A stretch of DNA of 64,000 nt from a virus: IMG/VR virus record IMGVR_UViG_3300027969_000045; one strand, written 5' to 3'. Below are positions 4,426 to 64,000 of this stretch, in pieces (position 1 is the first letter of the stretch; every line of letters begins with the position of its first letter). Made by a program: the position numbers and the translations under genes. The notes beneath the pieces are model-generated. The model had not been told where the DNA came from and did not search any database. It saw only the letters and a program-made list of their open reading frames with translations.

Positions 4426-4956
4426 ATGAACATTTTTGCCAATGATCAGTGTCCGGTGCTTTCTGCCGTGGCACTTCCTGACAAATACTCAGTGAAAATG
4501 CCCTTGGAGACCTGTCAGATGATTTCTGTCATCTACTCCAAGTGGTACTATGATTGGGGAACCATTCCAAAGAAAGACGGCACCCCCTATAATACAGAGA
4601 AGGGTGCCTTCCGTAATCATCCTTGTACTCAATGGGCAGCAAAATCCCACGAGAACCTTGCTTGGTTGATTCGGCACGGATTTGCCCTTTGTAATGAGTA
4701 TCGGCATCGTTATGAAAAAGACCACGCTTGTATGAAAGGTCTTGAAGTTGCGGAGAATATCTTTGCTACTAAAAGTGGAAAAGAAATCGGTATCTACAAA
4801 AATGTGGTAGAATTCACAAGGGCAATGTCGGATGAGTTCAAGTGCGATACTTCAATTGATACATTTGAGGCATATAGAAGATATGTTGCCTCCAAACCCT
4901 GGGTGAAGGATAATTACCTTCGCATCCCCGAAAGACGACCGCAATGGGTGGTATAA
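4426..4956 (+). CDS. Pyrimidine-dimer DNA glycosylase-like protein
   Basis: MNIF..DK..VKMPLETCQM, NHPCTQW, LCNEYRHRY.K.H motifs resemble the DenV-related family. Confidence 0.6.
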   Translation: MNIFANDQCPVLSAVALPDKYSVKMPLETCQMISVIYSKWYYDWGTIPKKDGTPYNTEKGAFRNHPCTQWAAKSHENLAWLIRHGFALCNEYRHRYEKDHACMKGLEVAENIFATKSGKEIGIYKNVVEFTRAMSDEFKCDTSIDTFEAYRRYVASKPWVKDNYLRIPERRPQWVV

Positions 4957-5048
4957 ATAATGATGCCTGGTTTGTTCGCACTTTTCGGGTGGGGGAGTAG
5001 AAATGCTCTCCCTTATAAATAGTATTGCGAACAAACAACAGAGCAGAA
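4952..5048 (+). ncRNA. Dual late promoter plus structured RNA cassette, copy 1 (candidate sRNA or pseudoknot)
   Basis: TATAAATA 4952; stem GCCTG/CGGGT; loop GTTTGTTCGCA complementary to TGCGAACAAAC 5026-5036; GAAA-tetraloop hairpin 4991-5012; second TATAAATA 5014; same architecture at 23312. Confidence 0.6.
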
Positions 5049-5618
5049 ATGTATTACTACACTTACGCATATTTGCGTGAAGATAAAACTCCTTATTATA
5101 TTGGTAAGGGTAAAGGTAATAGAATTAACTCTAAACAAAGAAGTATAAAACCCCCCAAAGATAAAAGTAGAATAATATACCTCAAACAAAATCTAACTGA
5201 AGCAGAGGCATTTAGACACGAAATCTATATGATTGCTGTGTTCGGTAGAAAGGATTTAGGAACTGGTATTCTTCATAATAGAACTGATGGTGGTGATGGT
5301 GCTTCTGGTACTGTAAGAAGTGTGGAAGTTAAGAAAAAGCAAAGTGAAAGGATGAGTGGAGAAAACAATCCTCACTATGGTAAAAGAGGTAAAGAGGGAC
5401 CTCATTATGGTAAAAAACATACGCAAGAAACAAAAGATAGAATAAGAAAATCTCTACAAGGTAATGTAATTTCCAAAGAAACTAGAATAAAGATTAGTGA
5501 AAAAAATAAACTAAATCAACTTGGAGAAAACAATTCCTTTTATGGGAGAAAACATACAGAAGAAACTAAAAGAAAAATGAGTGAGGCAGCAAAACGAAGA
5601 AAAGAAAAAGGTTCTTGA
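5049..5618 (+). CDS. GIY-YIG homing endonuclease with NUMOD3-like repeats
   Basis: YTYAY..YYIGKG..R..E..N catalytic module; HYGKKHTQETK and FYGRKHTEETKRKMS repeats; ATG 5049 follows a late promoter. Confidence 0.85.
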   Translation: MYYYTYAYLREDKTPYYIGKGKGNRINSKQRSIKPPKDKSRIIYLKQNLTEAEAFRHEIYMIAVFGRKDLGTGILHNRTDGGDGASGTVRSVEVKKKQSERMSGENNPHYGKRGKEGPHYGKKHTQETKDRIRKSLQGNVISKETRIKISEKNKLNQLGENNSFYGRKHTEETKRKMSEAAKRRKEKGS

Positions 5619-5643
5619 CTTTTGTTGATTGTCGTGCTAAACT
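5615..5643 (+). promoter_or_regulatory. sigma70-type early promoter
   Basis: TTGACT-17 bp-TAAACT with TG extension. Confidence 0.55.
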
Positions 5644-5670: not shown

Positions 5671-6108
5671 ATGACTACGATTAAAACTTATGCGATTAAT
5701 GAACTCACCAGAATTGGAATGTATAATTCTGGGGAAGAAATGAATGATGAAATGTGTGAACATATTCTCAAAATAGTGGATGTATTTGACGAAGAGGGGC
5801 ACTCTGGATTTTCGGCAGAATATGCGATTGGTATTCTTCAAAAACTTCTAAGATGGGAACCACTTTCGCCCTTGACTGGTGATGATGATGAGTGGAAGAA
5901 TTTGGAGAATGAAGGATTTCAAAATAAGAGATGCTCTCGTGTCTTCAAGGATGAAAAAGGTGGACAAGCATATGATATTCGTGGCAAAGTCTTCGTAAAT
6001 CCTGATGGTGCTGCTTTTACTAGTCGTGACAGTCGGGTGTATATTGACTTTCCGTATGTTCCTAAAACTGAATATGTAAATGTAGAACACGAAACTACTG
6101 AAGACTGA
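5671..6108 (+). CDS. Hypothetical phage protein
   Basis: GHSGFSA..PLSPLTG.DDEW..QNKRCSRVFK motifs; normal codon usage. Confidence 0.7.
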   Translation: MTTIKTYAINELTRIGMYNSGEEMNDEMCEHILKIVDVFDEEGHSGFSAEYAIGILQKLLRWEPLSPLTGDDDEWKNLENEGFQNKRCSRVFKDEKGGQAYDIRGKVFVNPDGAAFTSRDSRVYIDFPYVPKTEYVNVEHETTED

Positions 6109-13367: not shown

Positions 13368-13399
13368 TATAAATAAGTGTGGTTACTAACCATACACAA

Positions 13400-13957
13400 A
13401 TGTTTATAGATACGCACCACATAATACCAAGATCTGAAGGTGGAACTGATGATCCAAAAAATCTTGTTAAACTTCCAAGAAGATTACATCAAGAAGTTCA
13501 TCATCGTAGGTGGTTAGTTGGTGGATCTATTAATGATTTGTATGCTTTCCAAATATTAGGCGGAAATTTATCAGACGATGAATTGAAAAAAATTTATGAA
13601 GATCAAGTTTATAGATGTAAGAGGGATCAAACTAAATTGACTGAATCTAGAATAAATTCTGATAAATGGAAACAATCACATCAAAATGATGAATATAAAC
13701 AAAAGAAAAGAGAACAGAGTATTTTATTAAATAAACTTGGAAAAATTAATTCTAAAGAATCATCAATGCTTATAAGTGAAAAGAAAAAATCGGTGAAAAA
13801 TTACAATTCAAAATTAATTTCAGTTTATGGTAAAATATGGGAGGATGCTTCTAAATGTGTAAGAAGTGGTGGTTCTAATGGATTAAGTTTAAGACAATTG
13901 AGATACCGAGCGAATGAAATTAATTATCCCGATATATTTTATGTGGAGCAAATTTAG
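13400..13957 (+). CDS. HNH homing endonuclease
   Basis: HHIIPRSEGGTDDPKNLVKL..LHQEVH; late promoter TATAAATA and a short hairpin upstream. Confidence 0.85.
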   Translation: MFIDTHHIIPRSEGGTDDPKNLVKLPRRLHQEVHHRRWLVGGSINDLYAFQILGGNLSDDELKKIYEDQVYRCKRDQTKLTESRINSDKWKQSHQNDEYKQKKREQSILLNKLGKINSKESSMLISEKKKSVKNYNSKLISVYGKIWEDASKCVRSGGSNGLSLRQLRYRANEINYPDIFYVEQI

Positions 13958-13959
13958 TT

Positions 13960-14520
13960 ATGGTAATTGATTTAAATTATTTTGTTCAAGTTCATGAAAA
14001 TGCACTGGAAGAAAATGTTTGTGATTTCTTAATTTCATTATTTGATCAAGTTCCAGATAAACACGAGAGAATAGAAAACGAAAGAAAACCAAACTTCACT
14101 CAATTCAATCTTACTGAAAACTGTAAGATCACAGACGAAGTAAATACTGTTCACAATCATTTAATTAAAAAAACTTTTGATTATCGTAATGAATATTATG
14201 ATATGATTGATAAGAGAGTTTTTCCGGAAGAACACGCATTTGAACAATTTCGCATTAAGAGGTACAATAATGATGGCAATGACGAATTTGACACTCACGT
14301 AGATGTTATAGATCACGCAACATCAAGAAGATATTTGGCATTCTTTTGGTATTTGAATGATGTAGAACAGGGAGGAGAAACTAAATTTGCTGATATGATT
14401 ATACAACCAAAGAAAGGGAGTCTTCTTGTATTCCCTCCTCTTTGGATGTTTCCTCACGCAGGATTGCAACCAATAAGCAATCCAAAATATATTTTACACA
14501 CGTATTTGCACTATAAGTAA
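13960..14520 (+). CDS. 2OG-Fe(II) oxygenase (prolyl-hydroxylase-like)
   Basis: HVD..YLNDV..GGET.F..P.KG.LLVFP..PH.G..KY facial triad pattern. Confidence 0.88.
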   Translation: MVIDLNYFVQVHENALEENVCDFLISLFDQVPDKHERIENERKPNFTQFNLTENCKITDEVNTVHNHLIKKTFDYRNEYYDMIDKRVFPEEHAFEQFRIKRYNNDGNDEFDTHVDVIDHATSRRYLAFFWYLNDVEQGGETKFADMIIQPKKGSLLVFPPLWMFPHAGLQPISNPKYILHTYLHYK

Positions 14521-15152
14521 TGGAAAAAGTCGAAACTACTATTTTAAGAAATTTACTTTTTAATAATGATTATTGTAGAAAAGTATTACCATTTATTAAA
14601 AATGAATATTTTGAAAACCTTCACGAGAAGGTAGTTTTTGAAGAGATTTGTAAGTTTATTGTTGCTTATGATGGTCTTGCGACAAAAGAAGTTCTTTTAA
14701 TTGAAACTGAAAAAAGAACTGATATTACAGAAGATACTTATAAAACAATTTGTGAATATGTTTCTAATTTAGATAATACTCCTGCTGATACGAATTGGGT
14801 TACTGATACTACAGAAAAATGGTGCCGTGATAGAGCAATCTATCTTGCACTTATGGAAAGCATTAAAATTGCTGACGGACAAGATGATAAGAAGAATAGA
14901 GATGCAATTCCAACTATTCTTCAAGAAGCACTTGCTATTTCTTTTGATGACCATATTGGCCACGATTATCTAAACGATTATGAGGACAGATTTAATTCTT
15001 ATCACAGAAAAGAAGATAAAATTTCTTTTGATTTGGAATATTTTAACAAAATTACCAAAGGTGGTATTCCCAATAAAACACTCAATATTGCTTTAGCTGG
15101 TTGCGTTCATCCAGAAACCAGAGTTAAAATCAGATTTAGGAAGATTTCTTGA
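14520..15152 (+). CDS. gp41: gp41 DNA helicase N-terminal part fused to a 16-aa split-intein N fragment
   Basis: gp41 N-domain up to LNIALAG (first half of Walker A), then CVHPETRVKIRFRKIS stop. Confidence 0.92.
   Translation: MEKVETTILRNLLFNNDYCRKVLPFIKNEYFENLHEKVVFEEICKFIVAYDGLATKEVLLIETEKRTDITEDTYKTICEYVSNLDNTPADTNWVTDTTEKWCRDRAIYLALMESIKIADGQDDKKNRDAIPTILQEALAISFDDHIGHDYLNDYEDRFNSYHRKEDKISFDLEYFNKITKGGIPNKTLNIALAGCVHPETRVKIRFRKIS
15102..15149 (+). mobile_element. Atypically short split intein N fragment (16 aa)
   Basis: Intein block A pattern C-V-H-P-E-T-x-V at the Walker A junction. Confidence 0.85.
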
Positions 15153-15804
15153 TTTTGGAGTTTGGTGCTGGTTCTCCAGTTCCAAACTTCCAACCTTCAT
15201 TTAGTTTTATATCAACTTCTTCTGGTGATACTCTTTTCCATCCCTTTGTTCCCGGTAAATGCATTACCTTTTTGCCTTTATGTGCCTTTCCCCCTAATGA
15301 TGCTCGTGTTTTTCTTCCTTCATTAGATGCCCAATAATTGAATTCTGTGGATGCTCTTTGTTTTCCTCCAATTGATGCTCTTTCCTTTCTGCCTTCTTCT
15401 GTACTCCAATAATAGAAATTTTTAGTATTATTGATTAGATATTCTTGTTTTTGTATTTCTATTCCTTTTAGTCTCCAATCTTTTCTTTCTTCTACTGGGA
15501 TTGAGAAGAACCCAATTTGATTATCTCTACAAAATTCTCCTATTATTTTTCTGTGTTGGGGTGTTATATTTGCCCCCAACATTTTCATAGACCTTAAATC
15601 ATTTGGATTTTTATAAATTTTCCAAAGTAAATAATGTGCTATGATATGTTCTCTTACACTTAAATAAGTGAGATTTTCTTCACTATTATCTCCCCCCATA
15701 TGTTTTGGAGTAATATGGTGTTCGTGTATCCCAGAATATTTTTTATAATTGTCTTTTCTTGACCTATTGCTTTCGCATAGATTATAATAGATTTGACTAA
15801 ACAT
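15136..15804 (-). CDS. HNH homing endonuclease between the gp41 halves, opposite strand
   Basis: EHHITPKHMGGDNSEENLTYL..REHIIAHYLL; minus-strand TATAAATA at 15826-15833 and G-rich RBS. Confidence 0.88.
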   Translation of the reverse strand: MFSQIYYNLCESNRSRKDNYKKYSGIHEHHITPKHMGGDNSEENLTYLSVREHIIAHYLLWKIYKNPNDLRSMKMLGANITPQHRKIIGEFCRDNQIGFFSIPVEERKDWRLKGIEIQKQEYLINNTKNFYYWSTEEGRKERASIGGKQRASTEFNYWASNEGRKTRASLGGKAHKGKKVMHLPGTKGWKRVSPEEVDIKLNEGWKFGTGEPAPNSKIKKSS

Positions 15805-15837
15805 TTCCCCTGTCCCTGCTACTACTATTTATACAAA

Positions 15838-17010
15838 ATGTGGATTGAAAAAGAAACATCAATTGCTGAAATCAAAACATTACTTGATAATGGATATGAA
15901 GTGGAGGTCGATTCTCCCGATGGATATGTTCCTGTTAATTTTTTTATTAATAAAGGAATGTACGAAGAATATGAATTGCACTTGTATGATACTACTACTA
16001 AAGTAAAATGTAACGAAAGTCATTTATTTGAAACTAATCAGGGGTGGATTTCTGCTAAATCATTAGAGTATTCTAATTCGTATTGGGAGTTTATTACTAA
16101 AGACGGACTTAGAATTGGTAAGGTTATTAAGACCAATAATCAAATACCTATTGTAGATATTAATGTAAATCATCCAAATCATAGGTATTATACTAATGGG
16201 GTTTCCTCCCATAATACTGGTGTCGGAAAATCTTTGTTTATGTGTCATTTTGCTGCATCAGTTCTTCTTCAAGGAAAAAATGTTTTATACATTACACTTG
16301 AAATGGCAGAGGAAAAGATTGCTGAAAGAATTGACGCAAATCTTCTAAACATTAATATTAAAGACATTGAAACATTACCTAAAATGATGTTTGACTCAAA
16401 AATAAATAGTATTGCGAAGAAGACTCAAGGAACTTTAATTATTAAAGAGTATCCAACTGCTTCCGCACACGCAGGACATTTCAGAGCACTTCTAAATGAA
16501 CTCTCTCTTAAGAAATCATTCAGACCTGATATTATTTTTATTGACTACCTTAATATTTGTGGTTCCTCAAGATATAAGAGTAATTTTTCAGTTAATTCTT
16601 ATTCATATATTAAAGCAATTGCAGAAGAACTTCGTGGTCTTGCAGTTGAAGCAAATGTTCCAATTGTTTCCGCTACTCAAACTACTCGTAGTGGTTTTTC
16701 TAGCTCTGATCCTGATCTTACTGATACTTCTGAATCCTTTGGTCTCCCTGCTACTGCTGATCTTATGTTTGCCCTTATTAGCACAGAAGAGTTGGAACAA
16801 CTCGGGCAGATTATGGTAAAACAATTGAAGAATAGATACAATGACCCAACAATGAATAAAAGATTTGTAGTTGGTATTGACCGTGCGAAGATGAGATTAT
16901 TTGATGTAGAGCAAAGTGCTCAAACCGATATACTTGACTCTGGACAAGAAGAAGAGTATACTTATGAAGAAGATAAACCCAAAAAACAATTCTCTGGATT
17001 TAAATTTTAA
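15838..17010 (+). CDS. gp41: Split-intein C fragment (126 aa) fused to the gp41 helicase C-terminal part
   Basis: Block B KCNESHLF, block F IVDINV, block G YYTNGVSSHN, then TGVGKS, ITLEM, IDYL, ATQ, DTSESFGL, KNRY. Confidence 0.92.
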   Translation: MWIEKETSIAEIKTLLDNGYEVEVDSPDGYVPVNFFINKGMYEEYELHLYDTTTKVKCNESHLFETNQGWISAKSLEYSNSYWEFITKDGLRIGKVIKTNNQIPIVDINVNHPNHRYYTNGVSSHNTGVGKSLFMCHFAASVLLQGKNVLYITLEMAEEKIAERIDANLLNINIKDIETLPKMMFDSKINSIAKKTQGTLIIKEYPTASAHAGHFRALLNELSLKKSFRPDIIFIDYLNICGSSRYKSNFSVNSYSYIKAIAEELRGLAVEANVPIVSATQTTRSGFSSSDPDLTDTSESFGLPATADLMFALISTEELEQLGQIMVKQLKNRYNDPTMNKRFVVGIDRAKMRLFDVEQSAQTDILDSGQEEEYTYEEDKPKKQFSGFKF

Positions 17011-22294: not shown

Positions 22295-23311
22295 ATGTCT
22301 CAAGATTTGAATGATTTTTTTAAATTATTAGCAGAAGATAAGAAACAAAAAAAAGAAGAATTTGATAATCTTGTAGGAGATTTGGGATTAAATTCTCTTT
22401 TTGGTGAATTTGCTGCAATTAAAAAAGAACAAAAAGAAAAAAAGATAGAAGAAAAGAAAAAAACAGAATCTATTATTGGTGAACTTACTTTAGATTCTGT
22501 TTTTAAAGAAGTTGTTAATTTAAAAAAAGAAACAAAAAAGAAAAAAGTACAAGAACAAAAAACAATCCAAGCATTTGAAACTTGGTTATATTCTGATTCT
22601 GTATTGGAACAAGATGAAATAATCAATGAAGTTATTGAAGAATCTTTGGAAGAAGTTCTTGAGGTTCTTGAAGATAACAAAGAAGAATTGGAAGAATTTA
22701 ATAAAATTGAAGAACCAACATTAATTGAAAAATCATTAGGTCTTCTTGCCGAACCAAGTGATGTCAAGCAACAAAATGACCCATTAACTCCATTAGATCA
22801 AAAGTTCGCAACACTTGATGATTTACAAAAACATTACAGTACTTTCCTTTCTCGTATTCAACAACAACTTTCCACATTAGGTGGAGGGGGAGAAACCAGA
22901 TTAAGATACTTGGATGATATTGTAGGTATTGCAACGAATTCTGGTGCTTATGATGGAAAGTATTTGCAATGGAACTCTACTACTAATAAAGCAGAATTTA
23001 CTGACCCAAGTGATTCAGAATCTACAACAATAGTTTCAATTACTGGAATTACCACTTACTATCAGGCAACCGATAATGATGATTATATTGGTGTCAATGC
23101 TAGTGTTCCTGTAACAATAGTTCTTCCAACATCTCCAAATACTGGAAAAAAAATCATCGTCAAAGATGAGGGAAATAATATATCTACATATAGTATTAGA
23201 GTTCAATCAGGTATTGGTAAAAGTGTAGAAAACGATACTTCTGTGATTATGTCTATCAATCATCAATCACTAACATATTTTTTTAATGGAAACAATTGGT
23301 TTATTATCTAA
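22295..23311 (+). CDS. Putative virion-associated protein
   Basis: Charged N-terminus; LSTLGGGGETRLRYLDDIVG motif; beta-rich C-terminal domain (LP..P..G..IIVKDE). Confidence 0.6.
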   Translation: MSQDLNDFFKLLAEDKKQKKEEFDNLVGDLGLNSLFGEFAAIKKEQKEKKIEEKKKTESIIGELTLDSVFKEVVNLKKETKKKKVQEQKTIQAFETWLYSDSVLEQDEIINEVIEESLEEVLEVLEDNKEELEEFNKIEEPTLIEKSLGLLAEPSDVKQQNDPLTPLDQKFATLDDLQKHYSTFLSRIQQQLSTLGGGGETRLRYLDDIVGIATNSGAYDGKYLQWNSTTNKAEFTDPSDSESTTIVSITGITTYYQATDNDDYIGVNASVPVTIVLPTSPNTGKKIIVKDEGNNISTYSIRVQSGIGKSVENDTSVIMSINHQSLTYFFNGNNWFII

Positions 23312-23413
23312 CTAAATATCAATACCTGTGTGGTTCGCATCTATCAGGTGGAAAGGGTGCTTTCGGGCACCTTTTCTTGTATAAATAGTATTGCGAACCA
23401 TAACAGAATAAAA
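23312..23413 (+). ncRNA. Dual late promoter plus structured RNA cassette, copy 2
   Basis: CTAAATA 23312; stem ACCTG/CAGGT; loop TGTGGTTCGCA complementary to TGCGAACCATA 23392-23402; TTCG-tetraloop hairpin 23351-23376; TATAAATA 23380. Confidence 0.6.
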
Positions 23414-23980
23414 ATGATTTATTACACTTACGCATATTTGCGGGTAGATAGAACACCTTATTACATAGGAAAAGGAAAAGGTAATAGGGCATATAGAAGA
23501 AGATATAAAGGTGAAGTAAGAGCACCAAAGGATAAGTCAAGAATAATTTTCCTAAAACAAAACTTAACCGAAGAAGAAGCATTTAAGCACGAAATCTATA
23601 TGATTGCCGTGTTCGGCAGGATAGATTTAGGAACTGGTATTCTTCACAATAGAACTGATGGTGGTGAAGGTGCTTCTGGTGCTATAAGAAGTGAAGAAAC
23701 AAAATTAAAAATGAGAACTCCTAAAAAAACAACAATAAATATGAAAAAACCAAAAAGTGAGGAGCATAAGAAAAAAATAGGATTGCGTAGAAAAGGAAAA
23801 AAACACACGGAAGAAGCAAGAAAAAAAATGAGTGATGCTCAGGTTAGGAGAATTATCACTGATGAATTTAGAGAAAAAATTCAAAAAAGTAGAATGGGAA
23901 GAAAACATTCCGAAGAAACAAAACAAAAAATGAGAGAAAAAGCATTATTAAGAGAAGAACTAAAACGGAACAATAAATAA
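23414..23980 (+). CDS. GIY-YIG homing endonuclease with NUMOD3-like repeats (paralogue of 5049)
   Basis: [46 protein letters not shown] nearly identical to the 5049 ORF; different C-terminal repeats. Confidence 0.85.
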
Positions 23981-25040: not shown

Positions 25041-25064
25041 ATATAAATCAAATATATCACTAAA

Positions 25065-25096
25065 TGGAGACTTAATTTATAGGTCTCCATTTTTTT
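25065..25096 (+). terminator. Rho-independent terminator followed by late promoter
   Basis: TGGAGACTT..AGGTCTCCA with T run, then TATAAATA. Confidence 0.65.
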
Positions 25097-25129
25097 ATAA
25101 ATAAAAATAGGAAACTTACGGAAAAGAGA

Positions 25130-27242: not shown

Positions 27243-28247
27243 ATGAATTTTATTGATCAAAAATACATTGGTCTGGTTTCTTCAAGACTGGAGAAGTTTA
27301 AACAAGTTAAAACTGGACTGTATAATTTTAGATGTGTATATTGTGGGGATTCACAAAAGAATAAAAGCAAGACAAGAGGATATATTTACGGTTATAAGAA
27401 CGATCATAATTACAAGTGTCACAATTGTGGAGTATCTAAATCTTTTACTAATTTTCTAAAAGATATTGACACCACTCTTTATGATCAATATATTATGGAG
27501 AGATATAAGAATGGTTCTACTGGCAAGGGATCTAATACACCGGAACCAAAATTCACCTTTGAAAAACCAAAATTCACAAAAAAAGCATTTGATTTGCCAT
27601 CCATCGCAGAACTAAATAAAGAACATTCGGCAAGAATTTATTTAGAAAACAGAAAAATTCCTCAAGATTTTTTGAGTCAATTATTTTATTGTGAAAAGTT
27701 CAAACAATGGACGAATGAACAAAAAAAAACTTTTGAATCTACAAAATACGATGAACCTAGAATCATCATTCCACTTATCAACAATGGAGAAATATTTGGA
27801 TTTCAGGGTCGTAGTTTAAGTAAGAAACCAAAAGTAAAATACATCACAATTATTCTAGATGAAGATCAACCAAAAATTTATGGATTAAACAGAATTGATT
27901 GGAACAAAACTGTTTATGTTGTAGAAGGTCCATTTGATAGTATGTTTATTGAAAATTCAATTGCGATGGTTGGTGCGGATATTGATAAAATGTTTTTCAT
28001 AGCAAATTTTGAAACCAATTTTGTTATGGTCTATGATAATGAAAAAAGAAATAAAGAGATGGTTGCACGATTAGAAAAAAGCATTGAGATGAAATTTCCT
28101 GTGGTAATTTGGCCAAAAGATTTAAAGGAAAAAGACATTAATGATATTGTATTATCTGGACAAGACGTGGAATCTATGCTAAAATTAAATACTTACCAAG
28201 GATTAGAAGCAAAACTTAAATTTACCAACTGGAAAAAAGTAGCATGA
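27243..28247 (+). CDS. gp61: DNA primase
   Basis: Zn ribbon CVYCGDS..CHNC; TOPRIM VVEGPFDS, YDNE, KDIND. Confidence 0.95.
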   Translation: MNFIDQKYIGLVSSRLEKFKQVKTGLYNFRCVYCGDSQKNKSKTRGYIYGYKNDHNYKCHNCGVSKSFTNFLKDIDTTLYDQYIMERYKNGSTGKGSNTPEPKFTFEKPKFTKKAFDLPSIAELNKEHSARIYLENRKIPQDFLSQLFYCEKFKQWTNEQKKTFESTKYDEPRIIIPLINNGEIFGFQGRSLSKKPKVKYITIILDEDQPKIYGLNRIDWNKTVYVVEGPFDSMFIENSIAMVGADIDKMFFIANFETNFVMVYDNEKRNKEMVARLEKSIEMKFPVVIWPKDLKEKDINDIVLSGQDVESMLKLNTYQGLEAKLKFTNWKKVA

Positions 28248-29959
28248 GTAACGGCATAAACGTAGTTAAGAGAGATGGGTCTATTGAAAGTTTAGACCTC
28301 AATAAACTTCATTTGATGGTTGAAGAGTCTTGTAAAGACCTTGCTGGAGTGTCTGCATCTCAAGTTGAGATGACTTCTGGAATTCAATTTTATGATGGAA
28401 TTTCAACAAGAGAAGTTCAAGAAATTTTGATCAAATCTGCAGCAGATTTGATTGATTTAGAAAATCCAAATTATCAGTTTGTGGCAGCAAGACTTCTTTT
28501 GTTCTCTGTTCGTAAATCACTTTACGGAAAAATTAAAGATCATCCTACATTCTTTGAACATATTAATAAATGTGTAGATGCAAGTGTTTATGATAAGGAA
28601 ATCTTATCATATTATACGGAAGAAGAACTAAATCGTCTTGGTGATTATATCAAACATAAACGGGATTATCTCTTCACCTATGCCGGTCTTCGTCAAGTTG
28701 TTGATAAATATCTTGTTCAAGATAGAAGCACCGGACAAGTATATGAAACTCCACAGTTCATGTATATGATGATTGCTGCAACAAAATTCTCCCAATATCC
28801 AAAAGAAACTCGTCTTTCATATGTAAAGAGGTACTATGACGCAATATCAAAACACAAAATCAACATCCCAACACCAATTATGGGAGGAGTTAGAACTCCT
28901 TTACGACAATTTGCAAGTTGTGTTCTTGTTGATTCTGATGATACCCTCGATAGCATCGGTCACTCTGATTTGGCTATTTACAAGTACGTTGCTCAAAGGG
29001 CTGGCATCGGTATCAATGCGGGCAGAATACGTGGTATCAATTCTAAAATCAGAGGCGGAGAAGTACAACACACAGGTGTTATTCCCTTCCTTAAAAAGTT
29101 TGAAGCAACTGTCAGAAGTTGCACTCAAAACGGTATCAGAGGTGGTTCAGCAACTGTTCACTTTCCAATCTGGCACCAAGAAATAGAAGACATTATTGTT
29201 CTGAAAAATAATAAGGGAACTGAAGATAATCGTGTTCGTAAGTTAGACTATTCTATTCAAATCAGCAAAATCTTCTATGAACGATTTATCCGCAACGAAG
29301 AAATCACACTCTTCTCTCCCCACGATGTTCCTGGTCTTTATGATGCTTTTGGCACTGATGGATTTGACGACCTTTATGTGGGTTATGAACGAAATGAATC
29401 TATTCCAAGAAAAACTATCGGTGCTCAAGAACTCTTTCTGGACCTTCTAAAAGAACGTGCAGAAACAGGTCGTATTTATATTATGAATATTGACCATTGT
29501 AATTCTCATAGTTCTTTTCTTGATAAGGTTTCAATGAGTAACCTTTGTGTTGCTGGTGATACAAAGATTAAAATCAAATACCCAAAAGCAATATATGATG
29601 ATATTGGAGAGATTTATGATTGGAAAGTTTATGAAGAAGAAATTGAGATTGGAGATCTGGATGAATATATTAGTTCCAGAGAAATTAGAGTTATGTCTTA
29701 TAAAGTAAGTGATAATGATCCTTGTGAGGATGTTCCTCAAATAGAAGTTCTTTCTTATAATACAGAAACTAATCAACAAGAATGGGCACCTATTACAGCA
29801 TTTGCCGAAACATCACCAAAAGCAAAGGTAATGAGAATTACTGATGAAGAAAGTGGTAAGAGTATTGTAGTGACACCAGAGCATAAAGTATTCACAAAAA
29901 ATCGTGGATATGTAATGGCAAAAGACCTAACCGAAACTGATGAGTTGGCAATCAACTAA
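28244..29959 (+). CDS. nrdA: Class Ia ribonucleotide reductase alpha, N-terminal part, fused to a 137-aa split-intein N fragment
   Basis: ATP cone VVKRDG, PTPIM, ASCVL, QNGIRGGS, MSNL then CVAGDT (29546) and block B VTPEHKVFT. Confidence 0.95.
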   Translation: MSNGINVVKRDGSIESLDLNKLHLMVEESCKDLAGVSASQVEMTSGIQFYDGISTREVQEILIKSAADLIDLENPNYQFVAARLLLFSVRKSLYGKIKDHPTFFEHINKCVDASVYDKEILSYYTEEELNRLGDYIKHKRDYLFTYAGLRQVVDKYLVQDRSTGQVYETPQFMYMMIAATKFSQYPKETRLSYVKRYYDAISKHKINIPTPIMGGVRTPLRQFASCVLVDSDDTLDSIGHSDLAIYKYVAQRAGIGINAGRIRGINSKIRGGEVQHTGVIPFLKKFEATVRSCTQNGIRGGSATVHFPIWHQEIEDIIVLKNNKGTEDNRVRKLDYSIQISKIFYERFIRNEEITLFSPHDVPGLYDAFGTDGFDDLYVGYERNESIPRKTIGAQELFLDLLKERAETGRIYIMNIDHCNSHSSFLDKVSMSNLCVAGDTKIKIKYPKAIYDDIGEIYDWKVYEEEIEIGDLDEYISSREIRVMSYKVSDNDPCEDVPQIEVLSYNTETNQQEWAPITAFAETSPKAKVMRITDEESGKSIVVTPEHKVFTKNRGYVMAKDLTETDELAIN

Positions 29960-29963
29960 TATG

Positions 29964-30017
29964 ATAGGAAGTGTAATTTCTATATTTTATAAATAGTTAT
30001 GAGATTACACTTCCTAT
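29964..30017 (+). promoter_or_regulatory. 17-bp hairpin with late promoter in loop, masking the endonuclease translation start region
   Basis: ATAGGAAGTGTAATTTC / GAGATTACACTTCCTAT; TATAAATA 29988-29995; ATG 30019. Confidence 0.8.
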
Positions 30018-30018
30018 A

Positions 30019-30693
30019 ATGAAAACATATATTGTTTATAAAATTACCAATAAGAATAACGGAAAATCTTACATAGGAAAAACTGAATACTCATTAGAAC
30101 ATCGTTGGAATCGTCATTTATCATCGGCAAGAAATGGTTCTAAATTTAGATTTCATTCTGCTATTAGAAAATATGGTGAAGATTGTTGGGACTTATCTGT
30201 GATTGAAACCTATCTGACCGAAGATGAAAACTTTATTAACGAAAAAGAAACTCACTTTATTAAACTCTTTGAAAGTGATACTAAAAAAGGTTATAATGCT
30301 ACTTCAGGTGGAACTGGTGGATGGATGCTTCCCAAATGCTCTCCGGAGGTTCAGGAAGAATGGAGAAACAATATTTCTATAAGAACTACTGGTTCCAACA
30401 ATCCAAACCATTCTGGATATACTGATGAGCAACTTATAGAAATAGGTGTAAAGTTTGTTAAAAAATTTGGATTTATTGGTGGTAGAACGAGAATAGTTGA
30501 TTTTGCCAGTAATGAATTGAATATAAAGTTTCCAAAACATTTTTCTAAAAATAGATTTGGAGGAAACCATCAAAACTTTTATAAATCTATTGAAGAACAG
30601 ACTGGATTGGTGTATAATTCATATTATAGAGACGAAACTCAAAGAACACTTGCTAAACAACTTTTAGAACAAAACAGGAGAAAAAAATGCTAA
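30019..30693 (+). CDS. GIY-YIG homing endonuclease between the nrdA halves
   Basis: IVYKITNKNNGKSYIGKT..RWNRH..KYG..E..GYN. Confidence 0.9.
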   Translation: MKTYIVYKITNKNNGKSYIGKTEYSLEHRWNRHLSSARNGSKFRFHSAIRKYGEDCWDLSVIETYLTEDENFINEKETHFIKLFESDTKKGYNATSGGTGGWMLPKCSPEVQEEWRNNISIRTTGSNNPNHSGYTDEQLIEIGVKFVKKFGFIGGRTRIVDFASNELNIKFPKHFSKNRFGGNHQNFYKSIEEQTGLVYNSYYRDETQRTLAKQLLEQNRRKKC

Positions 30694-31781
30694 AGATTGA
30701 ATATCTTGAAGAAGAAATTCCAGTTTATGATATTACTGTAGAAGGAACACACAATTTCTTTGCAAATAATATTCTGGTCCATAATTGCCAAGAGATTACA
30801 CTTCCCACCAAACCTCTTCAACATATTGATGATCCAGATGGAGAGATTGCTCTCTGTATTCTTTCTGCAATCAATGTGGGTAAAGTTAAGGATGATAGTG
30901 AATTTGAAGAACTTTGTGATTTGGCTGTTCGTGGGTTGGAAGAACTCATTGATTATCAGCAATATCCAATAGTTGCTGCTGAAAAATCAACAAAAGCACG
31001 TAGATCTCTTGGTGTTGGATTTATTGGTTTGGCACATTATCTTGCTAAACTTGGTTTTGATTATGATTCTCAAGAAGCATGGGATGCAGTTCATAGTCTT
31101 TCTGAATCATTCCAATATTTCTTACTCAAATCTTCTAATCAGATTGCCAAAGAAAAAGGTGCTTGTGAATATTTCAATCGCACAAAGTATTCCCAAGGAA
31201 TTCTTCCAATTGATACATACAAAAAGGATGTTGATGAACTGTCAAATCCAACTCTTCAACACGATTGGGAAACACTTAGAGAAGATATAAAACTGTATGG
31301 TCTTAGACACTCCACACTATCCGCACAGATGCCCTCTGAGAGCAGTTCAGTCGTCTCTAATGCAACTAATGGAATTGAACCCCCTAGAGGTTATTTGTCC
31401 GTCAAACAGTCTAAAAAAGGTCCTCTCAAGCAAATTGTTCCACAGTTTCAAAGTCTTAAAAACAATTATACGCTTCTTTGGGATATGCCTAGCAATCGTG
31501 GTTATATTAATATTGTTGCAGTTATGCAAAAATTCTTTGATCAAGCGATTTCTGGAAACTGGTCATATAATCCGGAGAATTATCCCGATAATGAAGTTCC
31601 TGTTAGCGTAATGGCACAAGATATGCTCACTTGCTTTAAGTATGGGCACAAAACAGCATATTATCAGAATACTTATGATGGTAAGTCCGATGAAATCAAA
31701 GAAGAAAAATCCAACCTTGACAGTTTAGTGCAGGACATACTAAACTCTAATGAAGATGACTGTGAGAGTTGTAAAATTTGA
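30687..31781 (+). CDS. nrdA: Split-intein C fragment (33 aa) fused to the NrdA C-terminal part
   Basis: VYDITVEGTHNFFANNILVHN then CQEITL, LCILSA, MPSESSS, KTAYYQ, C-terminal CESC. Confidence 0.95.
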   Translation: MLKIEYLEEEIPVYDITVEGTHNFFANNILVHNCQEITLPTKPLQHIDDPDGEIALCILSAINVGKVKDDSEFEELCDLAVRGLEELIDYQQYPIVAAEKSTKARRSLGVGFIGLAHYLAKLGFDYDSQEAWDAVHSLSESFQYFLLKSSNQIAKEKGACEYFNRTKYSQGILPIDTYKKDVDELSNPTLQHDWETLREDIKLYGLRHSTLSAQMPSESSSVVSNATNGIEPPRGYLSVKQSKKGPLKQIVPQFQSLKNNYTLLWDMPSNRGYINIVAVMQKFFDQAISGNWSYNPENYPDNEVPVSVMAQDMLTCFKYGHKTAYYQNTYDGKSDEIKEEKSNLDSLVQDILNSNEDDCESCKI

Positions 31782-38749: not shown

Positions 38750-38783
38750 TTGATAAATAGGGGAGAGTTCATTCTCTCCCTTT

Positions 38784-39212
38784 ATGTTTAATTTTAATTT
38801 TGGAAATAAAAAACCAGATATTAAACAATATGCAATCATAGGAATTATCTTAAGTTCTGTGATTGCAACTCTTACACAATGTACTGGAATTCAAGAAACA
38901 TCCTTATGGGATGTATTTGATGAGGTGCAACGTAAGTTTTTCCCTCAAACAATCTTGAATGATTTCATCATCAAAGATCCCGAAAAATTGGATCGTAGGG
39001 TGAAGAGAGATGTTGATTTGGCAATTGCTGAGTATGAAAGATTGACAGGAGATGATGGAAAGATTAGGATGCCTAAACCACGATATTCAGAGAAACCACC
39101 AGACGGGTCTTATGTCCAATCAGTTTTGGGTGGTGAAATGAGATTGTGTGCTCCTTGGGTAAACGATTGCCCCTTTACAGACCAGAATAATGCGGATGTA
39201 ACTCAGCGGTAG
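38784..39212 (+). CDS. Hypothetical membrane-anchored protein
   Basis: N-terminal transmembrane segment; 3' end overlaps tRNA-Gly. Confidence 0.65.
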   Translation: MFNFNFGNKKPDIKQYAIIGIILSSVIATLTQCTGIQETSLWDVFDEVQRKFFPQTILNDFIIKDPEKLDRRVKRDVDLAIAEYERLTGDDGKIRMPKPRYSEKPPDGSYVQSVLGGEMRLCAPWVNDCPFTDQNNADVTQR

Positions 39213-42379: not shown

Positions 42380-42441
42380 TTACTAAATATAACGAGAGAG
42401 TTTATTACTCTCTTTTTTAATATAATATTGTAAAATTTTTT

Positions 42442-61398: not shown

Positions 61399-61464
61399 CA
61401 AATAAATTATTATTTGGTATAATAATCCCATAAATACCAAGAGGAAGGAAACTTCCTCTTTTTT
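61395..61464 (+). promoter_or_regulatory. sigma70 and late promoters followed immediately by a terminator
   Basis: TTGACA 61395, 17 bp, TATAAT 61418; ATAAATA; AAGAGGAAG-GAAA-CTTCCTCTT with T run. Confidence 0.65.
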
Positions 61465-61479
61465 AATAACTCAACTTTT

Positions 61480-62190
61480 ATGGACACTATATACGAACAA
61501 TTTATTTCATATTTAAAGGAAAAGGAAAAAAATATATCTGGATATGTTGAAAAGCATAGGATTATTCCGGGACATTCTGGTGGAAAATATATTGATAATA
61601 ATATAGTATTAGTCTCTTTTCCAGAACATTGTTTGGCGCATTTTTACCGATATTTAGCATATGGAAATTCTATTGACTTATATGCCTATCATAAAATGGT
61701 AGGAGATACAGTAGAAGCGAGAATATCTAGGTCAAAATCGGGTGGAGAAGCAGCAAAAAATATTAAAGTTGGATGTTTTAAAGATTATAAATGTAGGGAA
61801 GATACTTTAATAAACCCAGGAAGAAGTGCATATTATAATAAGGATATACAATCGTCTAATGGCAAAAAAAGAAAGAAACAACTTACAGAAGAAGATTTTT
61901 TTTCTTCTGAAAATCAAAAAGTTCGCGGTAAAAAAGGAGCAGAAGTTAATAGAAAAAATGGTACTGGAGCATTTGACTCAAAAAATTTAGAGAAGGCAAG
62001 AAAAAAACAAAAAGAAATGGGAATTGGTGTTCATAATAAGTTGTTTCAAAAATCTATGGCATTTAGAAGATGGGGTGCGGTACTTGATGGTAAAAGATTA
62101 TTTTATGATTTGGATATGAGAACTACTCTATCGGAAACTTTTGTCGATTATCATCTTAATTATGGATTAATTAATAATTACTCTAACTAA
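61480..62190 (+). CDS. HNH-like homing endonuclease downstream of psbA
   Basis: EKHRIIPGHSGGKY..NNIVLV..EHCLAHFYR; basic repeats similar in style to the 15136 HNH. Confidence 0.75.
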   Translation: MDTIYEQFISYLKEKEKNISGYVEKHRIIPGHSGGKYIDNNIVLVSFPEHCLAHFYRYLAYGNSIDLYAYHKMVGDTVEARISRSKSGGEAAKNIKVGCFKDYKCREDTLINPGRSAYYNKDIQSSNGKKRKKQLTEEDFFSSENQKVRGKKGAEVNRKNGTGAFDSKNLEKARKKQKEMGIGVHNKLFQKSMAFRRWGAVLDGKRLFYDLDMRTTLSETFVDYHLNYGLINNYSN

Positions 62191-62229: not shown

Positions 62230-62853
62230 ATGTCTTATTTGAATCATAACTTACCTGATTGGAGTTGTTACATTCGTAATGAGTTTCTATATAATCACAA
62301 AAAAGGACAAGGTGAAGTTACAAAATGTGATGTTCACTCTGTCGCAAGTATGGAGAAACGAGTTCCATTATTTGAATGTTTTCTAGAGAATGGTGTAAAC
62401 TGGACACGCAGACCATTACATTCACTTTGTTGGAAACTTGATGCAGAAATAGAACCTCTCAATCAAATTATGTATTGGGACTGTTTCTCTTCTTATGTGG
62501 ATGTTCAACGAAGAAATCGTCTTGCCGGATTGAAAGCAGAACTTATTCGTCCCGATAATACTAAAGTTCAAGGTGAGTATATGTTCACTCTTGACTGGGG
62601 ATTTGAGAATAAAGGAATGACGGACTTTAATTATTCAGAAACTCCAGAACATAAATGCGCTCATTTGTTCAAGGTGGAGACTGGTAATTATTATGCATAT
62701 CCAAATAATAGAATTATATGGATGGACTCCGCCTGGACATTCAATCGCATCCAGTCAAATCCCGGATATGAGATTGATACGAATTTGTATTCTGTAGAGA
62801 ACACAAGAACCTTTGAGACTTCAGACCATTACATTTACGACATTAAAGAATAA
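62230..62853 (+). CDS. Conserved cyanophage hypothetical protein
   Basis: YIRNEFLY..WDCFS..YMFTLDW..SETPEHKCAH..GNYYAYPNNRI. Confidence 0.75.
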   Translation: MSYLNHNLPDWSCYIRNEFLYNHKKGQGEVTKCDVHSVASMEKRVPLFECFLENGVNWTRRPLHSLCWKLDAEIEPLNQIMYWDCFSSYVDVQRRNRLAGLKAELIRPDNTKVQGEYMFTLDWGFENKGMTDFNYSETPEHKCAHLFKVETGNYYAYPNNRIIWMDSAWTFNRIQSNPGYEIDTNLYSVENTRTFETSDHYIYDIKE

Positions 62854-62930
62854 TTTTTGAAAGACCCTCTTGTGGGGTCTCATTTTTTGTGCTATAATAA
62901 ATAAATCATAAGACGAAAAATAGTTCATAA

Positions 62931-64000
62931 GTGGCACTCAGAAAACCATCAGATATTTTTGATAAAAAAATTGAAGATATTAACATTCCAGTTGTTGAGT
63001 CTGATAGTTCTTTGTATCTTGAGTTAAGTAAAGTAGAAAGTTTATCAGAACAAGTATCTCAATTACAACAAGAACTATCGCAAAAAGTAATTCAAACTGA
63101 TCTTGAGAAGTTAGTTCTATCTCAGATCAATTCAATGCGGGAGAATTTCAATTACCTGCAAAATGACTTTAAGAAATCAAATAAAAAAGATATTTCTGAA
63201 TTTAAAGATAAAGTATCACAACTTACGGAGATTGTTGGTAATCTCATAGAAGAAGAAATACCAAAATACAAAAAACAAGTCACCAAAAATGAAGTTCGTA
63301 TTGGTGAAAAGTTTGATACTCTTAAAGAAGTAGTAGAAGAAAATATTGTTGATATTAGAGGTGAGATAGACACTCAAGTTAACAATATTGCCGAAGTAAT
63401 TGATAATAATCTAGAGTATTTTAACAATCAACTTCAAGAAACTTCTTCTAAAGTAAAAGACACTACCGATACTTATAATAAACTTTCTAAAATTTTAGAA
63501 AGTAAACTAGTAAAGGAAAATGAGAAGTTAGAAGAATACTCACAGATTATTCAATCTCTTCACGAAGAATTTGTAGAACTTCAATCATTACTAGAAGAAA
63601 AGACCTCTTCTTATGATCAAGTAATTCAAGAAAAGTTTGGGGATATTTCTTCAGATATAAACAAAAAAATTCGTAGTATTGATGAAGAAGTAGATACCTT
63701 TAAGAATAAAGTATCTTCAGATATAAACAAAAAAATTAGTAGTATTGATGAAGAAGTAGATACCTTTAAGAATAAAGTATCTTCAGAAATTTCAAATATC
63801 AAAGCAGATGTTGTTATTAACGAACAGCATATTAAGAATGTAGATAAGTATCTAAAAGAAAATCATTCAGAACTTATAGAACTCAAAGAAGAAGTTTTTG
63901 GTGAGATTGAAAAATTACCTATTGGAAATCTTCAAGAAAATTTAGAAAGACTTGAAAAGAAAATTGATTTTATCAAAGAAACTTATTCTCGAATTGAACC
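62931..64000 (+). CDS. Long coiled-coil late protein (runs off the window; not in ORF track)
   Basis: GTG start VALRKPSDIF.. after ATAAATA; heptad-rich frame with no stop seen in the parts read. Confidence 0.7.
   Translation, partial: MALRKPSDIFDKKIEDINIPVVESDSSLYLELSKVESLSEQVSQLQQELSQKVIQTDLEKLVLSQINSMRENFNYLQNDFKKSNKKDISEFKDKVSQLTEIVGNLIEEEIPKYKKQVTKNEVRIGEKFDTLKEVVEENIVDIRGEIDTQVNNIAEVIDNNLEYFNNQLQETSSKVKDTTDTYNKLSKILESKLVKENEKLEEYSQIIQSLHEEFVELQSLLEEKTSSYDQVIQEKFGDISSDINKKIRSIDEEVDTFKNKVSSDINKKISSIDEEVDTFKNKVSSEISNIKADVVINEQHIKNVDKYLKENHSELIELKEEVFGEIEKLPIGNLQENLERLEKKIDFIKETYSRIE
63648..63787 (+). repeat. 66-bp in-frame tandem duplication (2 copies plus partial, 1 mismatch)
   Basis: TCTTCAGATATAAACAAAAAAATT(C/A)GTAGTATTGATGAAGAAGTAGATACCTTTAAGAATAAAGTA twice. 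Confidence 0.9.

Follow-up and report, generated by a model that had tools for sequence, protein, structure and literature searches.

The stretch analysed here, referred to as the window, comprises 64,000 nucleotides (nt) of the IMG/VR virus record IMGVR_UViG_3300027969_000045 and derives from a T4-like cyanomyovirus. It carries genes for the gp45 clamp, a denV-like glycosylase and gp44, a gp41 gene that is split, psbA together with a PhotoRC-II element, and tRNAs; its closest isolates show only ~80% identity, over short stretches. Two paralogous open reading frames (ORFs) of the window encode homing-endonuclease-like proteins, and each is preceded by a leader cassette of ~100 nt, which is the subject of this study. 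The parts of the cassette follow one another in a fixed order: a late-promoter box (P1), 5 nt, a hairpin formed by strands a and a' that presents strand b in its loop, a second hairpin (T), another late-promoter box (P2), 5 nt, and the leader strands b' and a'', the latter ending 2-9 nt 5' of the ATG (Table 1).

An earlier note on this DNA had proposed the same upstream architecture for both paralogous genes, and every element it listed was found at its place. Both late-promoter boxes it described are present in each copy, but box 1 of copy 2 reads ACTAAATA and does not correspond to the T4 consensus. In copy 1, strand b' (5026-5036) is complementary to loop bases 4970-4980, with the ATG (5049) following 12 nt on, and a'' is a purine-rich, Shine-Dalgarno (SD)-like AGAGCA region. 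The loop/leader complementarity postulated before was thus found again, but the 11 nt given for it were too few, as the 5' strand of the small stem also pairs with the leader, at CAG-A-GCA (5039-5045). The supposed swap of TT/AA for GG/CC between the copies turned out to be two double (compensatory) changes and one G-U. A 19-mer covering box 2 and the start of the 3' arm is identical in copies 1 and 2 (0.03 matches with up to 3 mismatches expected by chance), and on sequence grounds a chance origin of the resemblance of the cassettes is excluded. A 17/19 match to this segment (AATAAATAGTATTGCGAAG) is located at 16401-16419, in frame within the gp41 helicase coding sequence; since the other elements are absent nearby, it was not accepted as a cassette and is treated as chance or unexplained (~0.03 expected).

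Table 1. Cassette parts, nuclease genes and further features; positions are those of the window unless a locus (L) is named.
Feature	Position	Strand	Remarks
Cassette copy 1, whole	4952-5048	+	5' of nuclease ORF 5049
P1, copy 1, late-promoter box TATAAATA	4952-4959	+	contains, as TAA at 4954-4956, the stop codon of the denV-like ORF 5' of it
Presenting hairpin, copy 1	4965-4990	+	a GCCTG 4965-4969; 16-nt loop 4970-4985; a' CGGGT 4986-4990
Anti-leader strand b, copy 1	4970-4980	+	first 11 nt of the 16-nt loop
T, copy 1, GC-rich GAAA-tetraloop hairpin, terminator-like	4991-5012	+	fold -13.8 kcal/mol; ends 1 nt 5' of P2
P2, copy 1, late-promoter box TATAAATA	5014-5021	+	between both arms of the long-range helix
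3' arm (mRNA leader), copy 1	5026-5045	+	b' TGCGAACAAAC 5026-5036; a'' 5039-5045
Nuclease ORF, copy 1, homing-endonuclease-like, 189 aa	5049-5618	+	GIY-YIG-like N-terminal domain and NUMOD3 repeats
Cassette copy 2, whole	23311-23413	+	same part order as copy 1, helix sequences different
P1, copy 2 (ACTAAATA)	23311-23318	+	
Presenting hairpin, copy 2	23324-23349	+	a ACCTG 23324-23328; b 23329-23339; a' CAGGT 23345-23349
T, copy 2, 12-bp hairpin with UUCG loop	23350-23377	+	fold -16.2 kcal/mol; 3' strand runs into a U-rich stretch (CCUUUUCUUG)
P2, copy 2 (TATAAATA)	23380-23387	+	
3' arm (leader), copy 2	23392-23406	+	b' TGCGAACCATA 23392-23402 plus ACAG; duplex -21.5 kcal/mol
Paralogous nuclease ORF, copy 2, homing-endonuclease-like, 188 aa	23414-23980	+	
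Second-architecture loci	L024:1380-1494, L143:1389-1494, L070:2658-2763, L051:1402-1494		single hairpin, then U-run
Orphan unit: late box, presenting hairpin, terminator hairpin	L119:2981-3086	-	between two structural genes
Tad3-like gene	5671-6108		directly 3' of nuclease copy 1; Pfam Tad3 (type I Thoeris inhibitor), strong match, E = 1.2e-41
Early (sigma-70-type) promoter-like site, TTGACT-17-TAAACT plus upstream TG	5615-5643	+	overlaps stop codon of nuclease copy 1, faces Tad3-like gene
nrdA N-part ending in intein N-fragment	28244-29959		
Simple mask of nrdA-intein nuclease: hairpin with TATAAATA in the loop	29964-30018		
Classic GIY-YIG endonuclease gene within fractured nrdA	30019-30693		
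Intein C-fragment and remainder of NrdA	30687-31781		7-nt overlap with nuclease gene

The two nucleases are 54% identical, and the nuclease ORFs match PHROG 314 'homing endonuclease'. Their C-terminal NUMOD3 (Pfam, 2.8e-20 for copy 1) and I-TevI-like DNA-binding modules are clear, the I-TevI DNA-binding domain 1i3j being matched by copy 1 with E = 0.003. The N-terminal domain is best termed GIY-YIG-like; this assignment rests on motif residues invariant in 27 homologues (Y4/Y6, Y16-Y17-x-G19, R25, H57-E58, N77), on Pfam GIY-YIG matches below threshold, and on an AlphaFold2 model of medium confidence (pLDDT 61), whose nine best PDB matches were all UvrC GIY-YIG domains and weak (E ~0.1, probability 0.80-0.96). 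Members of this family are labelled 'translation initiation factor 2' in public records (62515-63273 of NC_070963, i.e., of S-SRM01, a freshwater phage of Synechococcus available in culture, as well as the homologues of phages B3 and B23), which looks like a mis-annotation originating from the lysine-rich NUMOD3 repeats.

Minimum free energy folding of the whole leader (RNAfold) yielded in both copies a single long-range helix of 15-18 bp, which encloses the tetraloop hairpin and box 2. The fold energies amounted to -36.2 kcal/mol for copy 1 and -39.1 kcal/mol for copy 2 (z = -5.0 and -5.8, respectively), and none of 200 shuffles (0/200) was as stable. The leader is paired in this helix with the loop and, beyond it, with the 5' strand of the small stem; it is covered to 2-9 nt 5' of the AUG, as in a masking helix of the T4 type, and an RNA beginning after box 2 is predicted to be unstructured. 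Throughout the per-sequence folds two states were obtained: the full leader forms the long helix, and the segment from box 1 to the inner hairpin forms a local hairpin of 5-8 bp plus the inner hairpin. Strand a can consequently pair either with the adjacent a' or with a'' of the leader, but not with both at once; both partners are kept, the long helix being ~14 kcal/mol more stable than the local fold.

Alignment of 94 cassettes with MAFFT followed by RNAalifold gave no pairs. This is explained by variable loop and spacer lengths, which misalign the arms, and covariance models and alignment-free tests were therefore used instead. Two models were derived from one four-sequence seed, R1 comprising the long helix and T, and R2 the local hairpin a:a' and T. 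Within the R1 alignment 95.2% of cells were paired compared to 69.2% in column shuffles and 39-50% with slid partners, and changes on both sides were seen in 30 out of 30 pairs. For b:b' the paired fraction was 98.2% (10/10 pairs changed on both sides), for a:a'' 93.6% with all pairs changed on both sides, and for the T helix, which likewise covaries, 93.7%. The R2 alignment showed 93.6% of cells paired versus 71.7% in shuffles, and a:a' itself 92.4%, with changes on both sides in 7/7 pairs. Covariation in the upstream regions of homologues, the check set by the earlier note, was found in this way for every helix, both partners of strand a included. For the long helix the result was the same when alignments were avoided: duplexes of a 5' arm with the 3' arm of its own cassette reached -22.2 kcal/mol, those with the 3' arms of other cassettes -9.5 kcal/mol. 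The loop is hypervariable, with 53 distinct 10-nt cores of b among the 94 cassettes, and strand b has the form of a small-RNA seed, covarying and complementary to the translation initiation region of its putative target. G-U pairs are frequent on the sense strand only, which argues for selection on the RNA of this strand, as had been suggested before, and rules out a DNA-level inverted repeat or cruciform.

The cassette family precedes ~170 nuclease genes in IMG/VR contigs. Two protein-seeded IMG/VR scans delivered 160 loci with 115 unique upstream regions, 98 of which contain two TAAATA boxes 60-81 nt apart, the second one 28-36 nt 5' of the ATG. A search of 100 sources with model R1 yielded 96 matches on the plus strand; within the window there were none besides copies 1 and 2, copy 2 scoring 86.5 bits (82.5 bits with R2). 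A sample not seeded on protein was obtained with an 18-mer from the inner-hairpin tail and box 2, which occurs at 72 sites followed by an ORF. Box 1 and a strong duplex were found at 68 of these sites and a duplex lacking box 1 at one, the remaining three belonging to ordinary genes; all 69 cassette ORFs are homing-endonuclease-like and represent at least five kinds, HNH included. Among the genes preceded by further model matches are a classic GIY-YIG gene, one resembling endonuclease VII/HNH and one of another homing-endonuclease family, and S-SRM01 contains six cassettes before five kinds of nuclease gene, an element unmentioned in the paper on this phage. Judged from these sequences, the cassette is a portable module common to several unrelated nuclease families. 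The earlier note had not recognised a named motif here; correspondingly, Rfam gave no match at gathering threshold in the window, none at E <=1 in five loci and none at E <=10 around copy 1, and around copy 2 only two sub-threshold chance matches.

Members of the same nuclease family also occur with a second architecture (L024, L143, L070:2761). In these loci the anti-leader forms the loop of the terminator hairpin, and the helix extends as far as the AUG. Here, a loop of 11-13 nt is complementary to the bases immediately 5' of, and touching, the ATG, and the upstream box is often absent. The orphan unit of locus L119 has neither a second box nor a complementary leader or nuclease gene; it is either what remains of a cassette since lost or an RNA gene in its own right.

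P2 reads TATAAATA in 88 of the 94 unique cassettes and lies 28-36 nt 5' of the ATG, like other late boxes in the window. P1 follows the consensus N[A/C]TAAATA and, with an AT-rich spacer similar to that of P2, keeps a constant distance of 5 nt to the hairpin; in the sample not seeded on protein it is present in 68 of 69 cassettes. The CTAAATA variant accounts for 23/94 P1 boxes and is also found 5' of other window ORFs (17618, 34574 and 42384), and the same box variants, this one included, stand 22-36 nt 5' of many ORFs of the window. The window's late boxes agree with the cyanophage late promoter NATAAATA (PMC2984593). Late promoters of T4 are 8-bp boxes at -13 to -6 (PMC2988020), and applying this spacing to copy 1 predicts +1 at G4965 for P1 and at G5027 for P2, so that the local hairpin would begin, with its first paired base, at the very 5' end of the P1 transcript, and the P2 transcript would start at the complementary stretch of the leader.

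The stop codon of the upstream gene falls inside box 1 in 36/72 cases, so the box also ends the invaded gene; the copy 2 nuclease gene itself stops inside the late box of the next gene (AATAAATA, 23972-23979). Alleles of the denV/gp44 junction free of a homing endonuclease gene (HEG) have no box, the stop codon being followed by the next ATG within 2-3 nt. Box 1 therefore came with the cassette, and an origin of P1 as the resident gene's own promoter or as insertion target site is ruled out. P1 may fire as a promoter.

The inner hairpin T is GC-rich, with a mean energy of -14.4 kcal/mol and mostly GAAA or UUCG loops, and at least 6 T within 12 nt spanning the end of its stem were counted in 75/94 cassettes. 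The same punctuation of hairpin, U-run and TATAAATA separates ordinary late genes as well, e.g., at 25060-25105. By its sequence T is terminator-like and may act as a terminator.

We consider it probable that the whole represents a portable leader cassette of HEGs of freshwater T4-like cyanophages, which would restrict translation to a dedicated late transcript and in addition would include a putative small-RNA unit. The best supported mechanism is a T4-type mask acting in cis, which we regard as highly probable. Every RNA starting 5' of P2, by read-through from the neighbouring gene or at P1, would carry the 5' arm a+b, and most of these RNAs would stop at T. Those reading through would fold the 15-18 bp helix of a+b with b'+a'', thereby burying nearly the whole leader of 13-25 nt, the SD-like a'' included. 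RNA begun at P2 would be the only form lacking the 5' arm and thus translatable, according to the principle of T4 e, soc and I-TevI and of Aeh1 mobE.

Masks of this type with a nested late promoter are known from T4 e, soc, 49, I-TevI/II/III and segB and from mobE of Aeromonas phage Aeh1 (PMC3014915). The earlier note had set the cassette apart from such hairpins, which mask the translation start and contain a late promoter. As worded, this distinction is not supported, since the helix drawn in full is such a mask: box 2, a predicted promoter, lies between its arms, 5 nt 5' of b', and the loop/leader complementarity taken in cis is the classical T4 arrangement. As in T4, the helix is predicted to sequester the initiation region on upstream-started transcripts, a late promoter TATAAATA sits between the arms so that only the late transcript would be translatable, and HEGs are among the genes equipped in this way. 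Unlike these masks, the cassette encloses a separate terminator-like hairpin, its 5' arm is a covarying hairpin showing the anti-leader in the loop, a second, cassette-borne late box stands exactly 5 nt 5' of this hairpin, the AUG is unpaired, and the whole is a sequence-related module common to several nuclease families. Related elements have been reported from marine metagenomes by Dassa et al. 2009 (PMC2677866), who, in the parts of the text available to us, describe TATAAATA hairpins 5' of free-standing endonuclease genes in 'fractured genes', with a late-promoter element and two conserved, mutually complementary motifs in the 5'-UTR hairpin. The cases given there are similar in concerning cyanophage-like DNA and GIY-YIG and other endonucleases, and the window holds an example of its own (29964-30018) in the split-intein nrdA; the passages concerned describe single hairpins, unlike the cassette, and mention no upstream second box, inner terminator or alternative pairing.

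The 5' arm appears to be packaged as a unit of its own, consisting of P1, 5 nt, the hairpin beginning at the predicted +1, and T. Transcribed late, this unit would yield an RNA of ~46-65 nt, and the existence of such a discrete box-1 RNA is, from the sequence, somewhat more probable than its absence. The presenting hairpin would keep the pyrimidine-rich anti-SD strand a paired with a' and show the hypervariable b in the loop. According to model calculations an RNA that extends from box 1 through the tetraloop hairpin could form a duplex with the box-2 mRNA leader over its whole length: the predicted heterodimer of small RNA and P2 mRNA gains on average -13.3 kcal/mol and has ~14 intermolecular pairs ending 2-9 nt 5' of the AUG. 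Loop b would probably nucleate on the 5'-terminal b', whereupon a would exchange a' for a'', and the resulting pairing in trans would throttle nuclease synthesis. The design could be read as a variable loop serving as address and strand a serving as anti-SD effector, caged by a' until the address has docked. A functional effect in trans is plausible, though somewhat less likely than not. A mask in cis needs neither a cassette-borne box 1, nor a separately selected local hairpin, nor a terminator inside the mask; the three together amount to the layout of a small-RNA gene.

Several findings weigh against this combination of cis mask and small-RNA unit. A mask acting in cis alone suffices to account for b:b' and a:a'', and no small RNA is needed for this; the long helix leaves the AUG unpaired, and the assignment of a'' as SD is by resemblance only. 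P1 is less consensus-like than P2, and it may be conserved in part because every second P1 box doubles as a stop codon. A terminator consensus scan called T in neither window copy, in copy 2 because the scan absorbs the U-run into the stem, and T of copy 1 has a poor U-tail (4 T of 8). If T is weak, few discrete small RNAs would be released, and if it is strong, the cis mask would rarely be needed. Furthermore, the pair counts rest on alignments fitted to each structure, and on an alignment not fitted to it a:a' reached 65.0% paired cells compared to 62.3% in shuffles, which is barely above the controls; this value is a register artefact, yet it shows that the 92% figure is alignment-dependent. 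The alignment-free comparison of own and foreign partners is therefore the fairer support for a:a', giving -6.4 kcal/mol for own and -3.2 kcal/mol for different-class partners, with ~10% of foreign partners matching the own one. Finally, no cassette copy was found in Syn9, S-PM2 and P-SSM2, which are among the better-studied cyanophages with published transcript maps.

Among the other readings, the one that fares best places the main function in trans. P1, hairpin and T would then constitute a late small-RNA gene on the sense strand, arranged in tandem with its target and supplying each nuclease with an antidote or throttle of its own, whose copy-specific loop b finds the 5' end of its own P2 mRNA and from there spreads the helix over the SD-like a'', cis masking being a by-product. 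We view this as a tentative alternative. It would account for P1 being invariant at a fixed 5 nt with the predicted +1 at the first paired base of the hairpin, for P1 travelling with the cassette, for the flush 5' hairpin and 3' terminator hairpin that form the usual layout of stable small RNAs, and for a:a' being selected in its own right though it competes with the cis mask. The heterodimer favoured by ~-13 kcal/mol, the same loop display in the second architecture (L024, L143, L070:2761) and the target-less orphan P1-hairpin-T unit of L119 also fit. The six S-SRM01 copies are mutually orthogonal, own-partner duplexes ranging from -20.6 to -26.6 kcal/mol and cross-pairings from -1.8 to -15.6 kcal/mol, which is not counted as decisive because neutral drift in cis would yield the same result; moreover, two copies of one contig sharing the same b (L103, L122) mean that orthogonality is not strict. 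The reading is further weakened by the weaker look of P1 compared to P2, by the questionable terminator in copy 1, and by the fact that both RNAs would be made in the same period, leaving only a dosage effect as benefit. T4-type phages are, in addition, without a characterised trans-acting small RNA, none having been characterised in T4 (review PMC3014915).

The opposite view, a mask in cis only and no functional small RNA, appears unlikely. The P1 sequence TAAATAA would in this case merely provide stop codons in two frames and an AT-rich boundary, and a:a' would hold or protect the 5' arm while the polymerase covers the ~60 nt to the 3' arm. The upstream stop codon inside P1 in 36/72 cases agrees with this, as do the known nuclease masks, which need no second promoter (PMC3014915, PMC2677866), the simple form at the window's nrdA-intein nuclease and the several second-architecture variants without a P1 box. 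A stop role, however, leaves unexplained why the middle A is invariant, why A or C is preferred just 5' of the box, why the AT-rich spacer is always 5 nt long and why the box matches those 5' of other genes, and P1 is retained in nearly all cassettes of the sample that was not seeded on protein. Moreover, a' competes with the mask and yet covaries with a.

Two further possibilities are very improbable. Transcriptional interference, in which P1 polymerases pausing or terminating at T, 1-3 nt 5' of P2, occlude P2 and lower nuclease transcription, is suggested by geometry alone (T end 5012/P2 start 5014 in copy 1, T end 23377/P2 start 23380 in copy 2) and leaves the covarying complementarity of b:b', a:a' and a:a'' unexplained. 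A switch choosing between a' and a'' under control of a ligand or protein, be it the nuclease binding the hairpin (autoregulation) or a loop/leader pseudoknot in the read-through RNA, would match the two mutually exclusive covarying helices, as in riboswitch expression platforms; but no conserved unpaired sequence or pocket is present, the loop is the hypervariable part, the service to unrelated nuclease families argues against a specific protein partner, and owing to the stability advantage of the long helix of ~14 kcal/mol no factor is needed. The pseudoknot and the nuclease-binding alternatives, both raised in the earlier note, consequently received no specific support.

Coming back to the favoured combination of cis mask and small-RNA unit, its putative RNA can be compared with known regulators. 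StxS is a base-pairing small RNA generated by early termination of a phage late transcript (PR' to tR'; PMC7547250). The sequence of a phage late promoter and, at once, a terminator giving rise to a short RNA would be shared by the cassette, for which it is only predicted; StxS, unlike the cassette RNA with the leader of the adjacent gene as target, is an antitermination by-product of a lambdoid prophage and has host targets. CfrI of cyanophage S-PM2 (Millard et al. 2010, as cited in PMC2984593) is described in that citation as an antisense RNA of ~225 nt overlapping an endonuclease gene and psbA. It resembles the predicted cassette RNA in being non-coding, in its origin from a T4-like cyanophage and in its link to a HEG, but is encoded on the opposite strand, whereas the cassette element is located upstream on the sense strand and comprises ~55 nt; S-PM2 is without the cassette.

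In CopA/CopT and in type I systems such as hok/sok, a hairpin loop acts as seed, pairing spreads over the ribosome binding region, and a potentially toxic gene is controlled. The loop seed, the spreading duplex and the control of a potentially harmful gene would recur in the cassette. The regulators of those systems are encoded on the opposite strand, so that complementarity comes free, while in the cassette both partners lie in tandem on one strand and can stay complementary only by covarying. Moreover, the cassette controls a nuclease and not a membrane peptide. With a same-strand tandem RNA and a 189-aa DNA endonuclease-like protein, the cassette resembles a type I toxin-antitoxin system in logic only, by analogy.

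The literature on small RNAs controlling phage homing endonucleases, as far as we could find, is confined to CfrI and general reviews, and in the papers we could search no nuclease leader is described as having a second box, a terminator inside the mask or alternative pairing. The core of the cassette is thus the known T4-type mask; new are its own P1, the anti-leader contained in a hairpin, and the terminator-like hairpin inside the mask. It is conceivable, though not what we would expect first, that each nuclease gene possesses its own small-RNA gene, with a late RNA of ~55 nt, a private loop address and a caged anti-SD effector, forming a portable 'nuclease plus antidote RNA' module that passes from one phage genome, and from one nuclease family, to another. 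If true, T4-type phages would thereby gain their first described regulatory small RNA acting in trans, and, if the small RNA exists, nature would offer in these cassettes a collection of orthogonal pairs of RNA regulator and target. As selfish elements, homing endonucleases may harm the phage carrying them, and control of their dose is known in few T-even cases only; here the control device is itself mobile and common to unrelated nuclease families. Its design is modular, combining a variable 'address' helix and a semi-conserved anti-SD 'effector' strand with two partners with its own promoter and terminator, both predicted. A widespread and strongly covarying cassette without an Rfam family would merit an RNA family entry, and the cultured phage S-SRM01 makes the small-RNA question directly testable.

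Regarding the surroundings of copy 1, the nuclease gene is followed by a Tad3-like gene and overlaps with an early promoter-like site facing it (Table 1), which might restore early transcription 3' of the cassette terminator. The junction of the denV-like gene and gp44 is a hot spot (L290-L369) whose occupants differ between phages: nothing with coupled stop/start, small ORFs, other inserts, or a classic GIY-YIG gene, the latter being preceded in L314 and L334 by a simple box-containing hairpin.

Two further genes of the window are interrupted. The gene nrdA, encoding the large subunit of ribonucleotide reductase, is 'fractured' across 28244-31781. In the gp41 helicase gene (14520-17010) the interruption is due to an intein, and the minus strand carries an HNH endonuclease gene there, at 15136-15804; a masking arm was looked for at this HNH gene and none was found, only a late box 29 nt 5' of the ATG.

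TAAATA boxes followed directly by a GC-rich hairpin were also observed at 42384-42440, 61431-61480 and 38754-38790, with a U-run 3' of the hairpin at the first two sites and one of the three just after psbA. They represent either gene-end terminators near chance boxes or further short late transcripts. At 13370-13404 a perfect hairpin (GTGTGGTTA..TAACCATACAC) comes after a late box and stops 3 nt short of an ATG; it would persist even in the late transcript.

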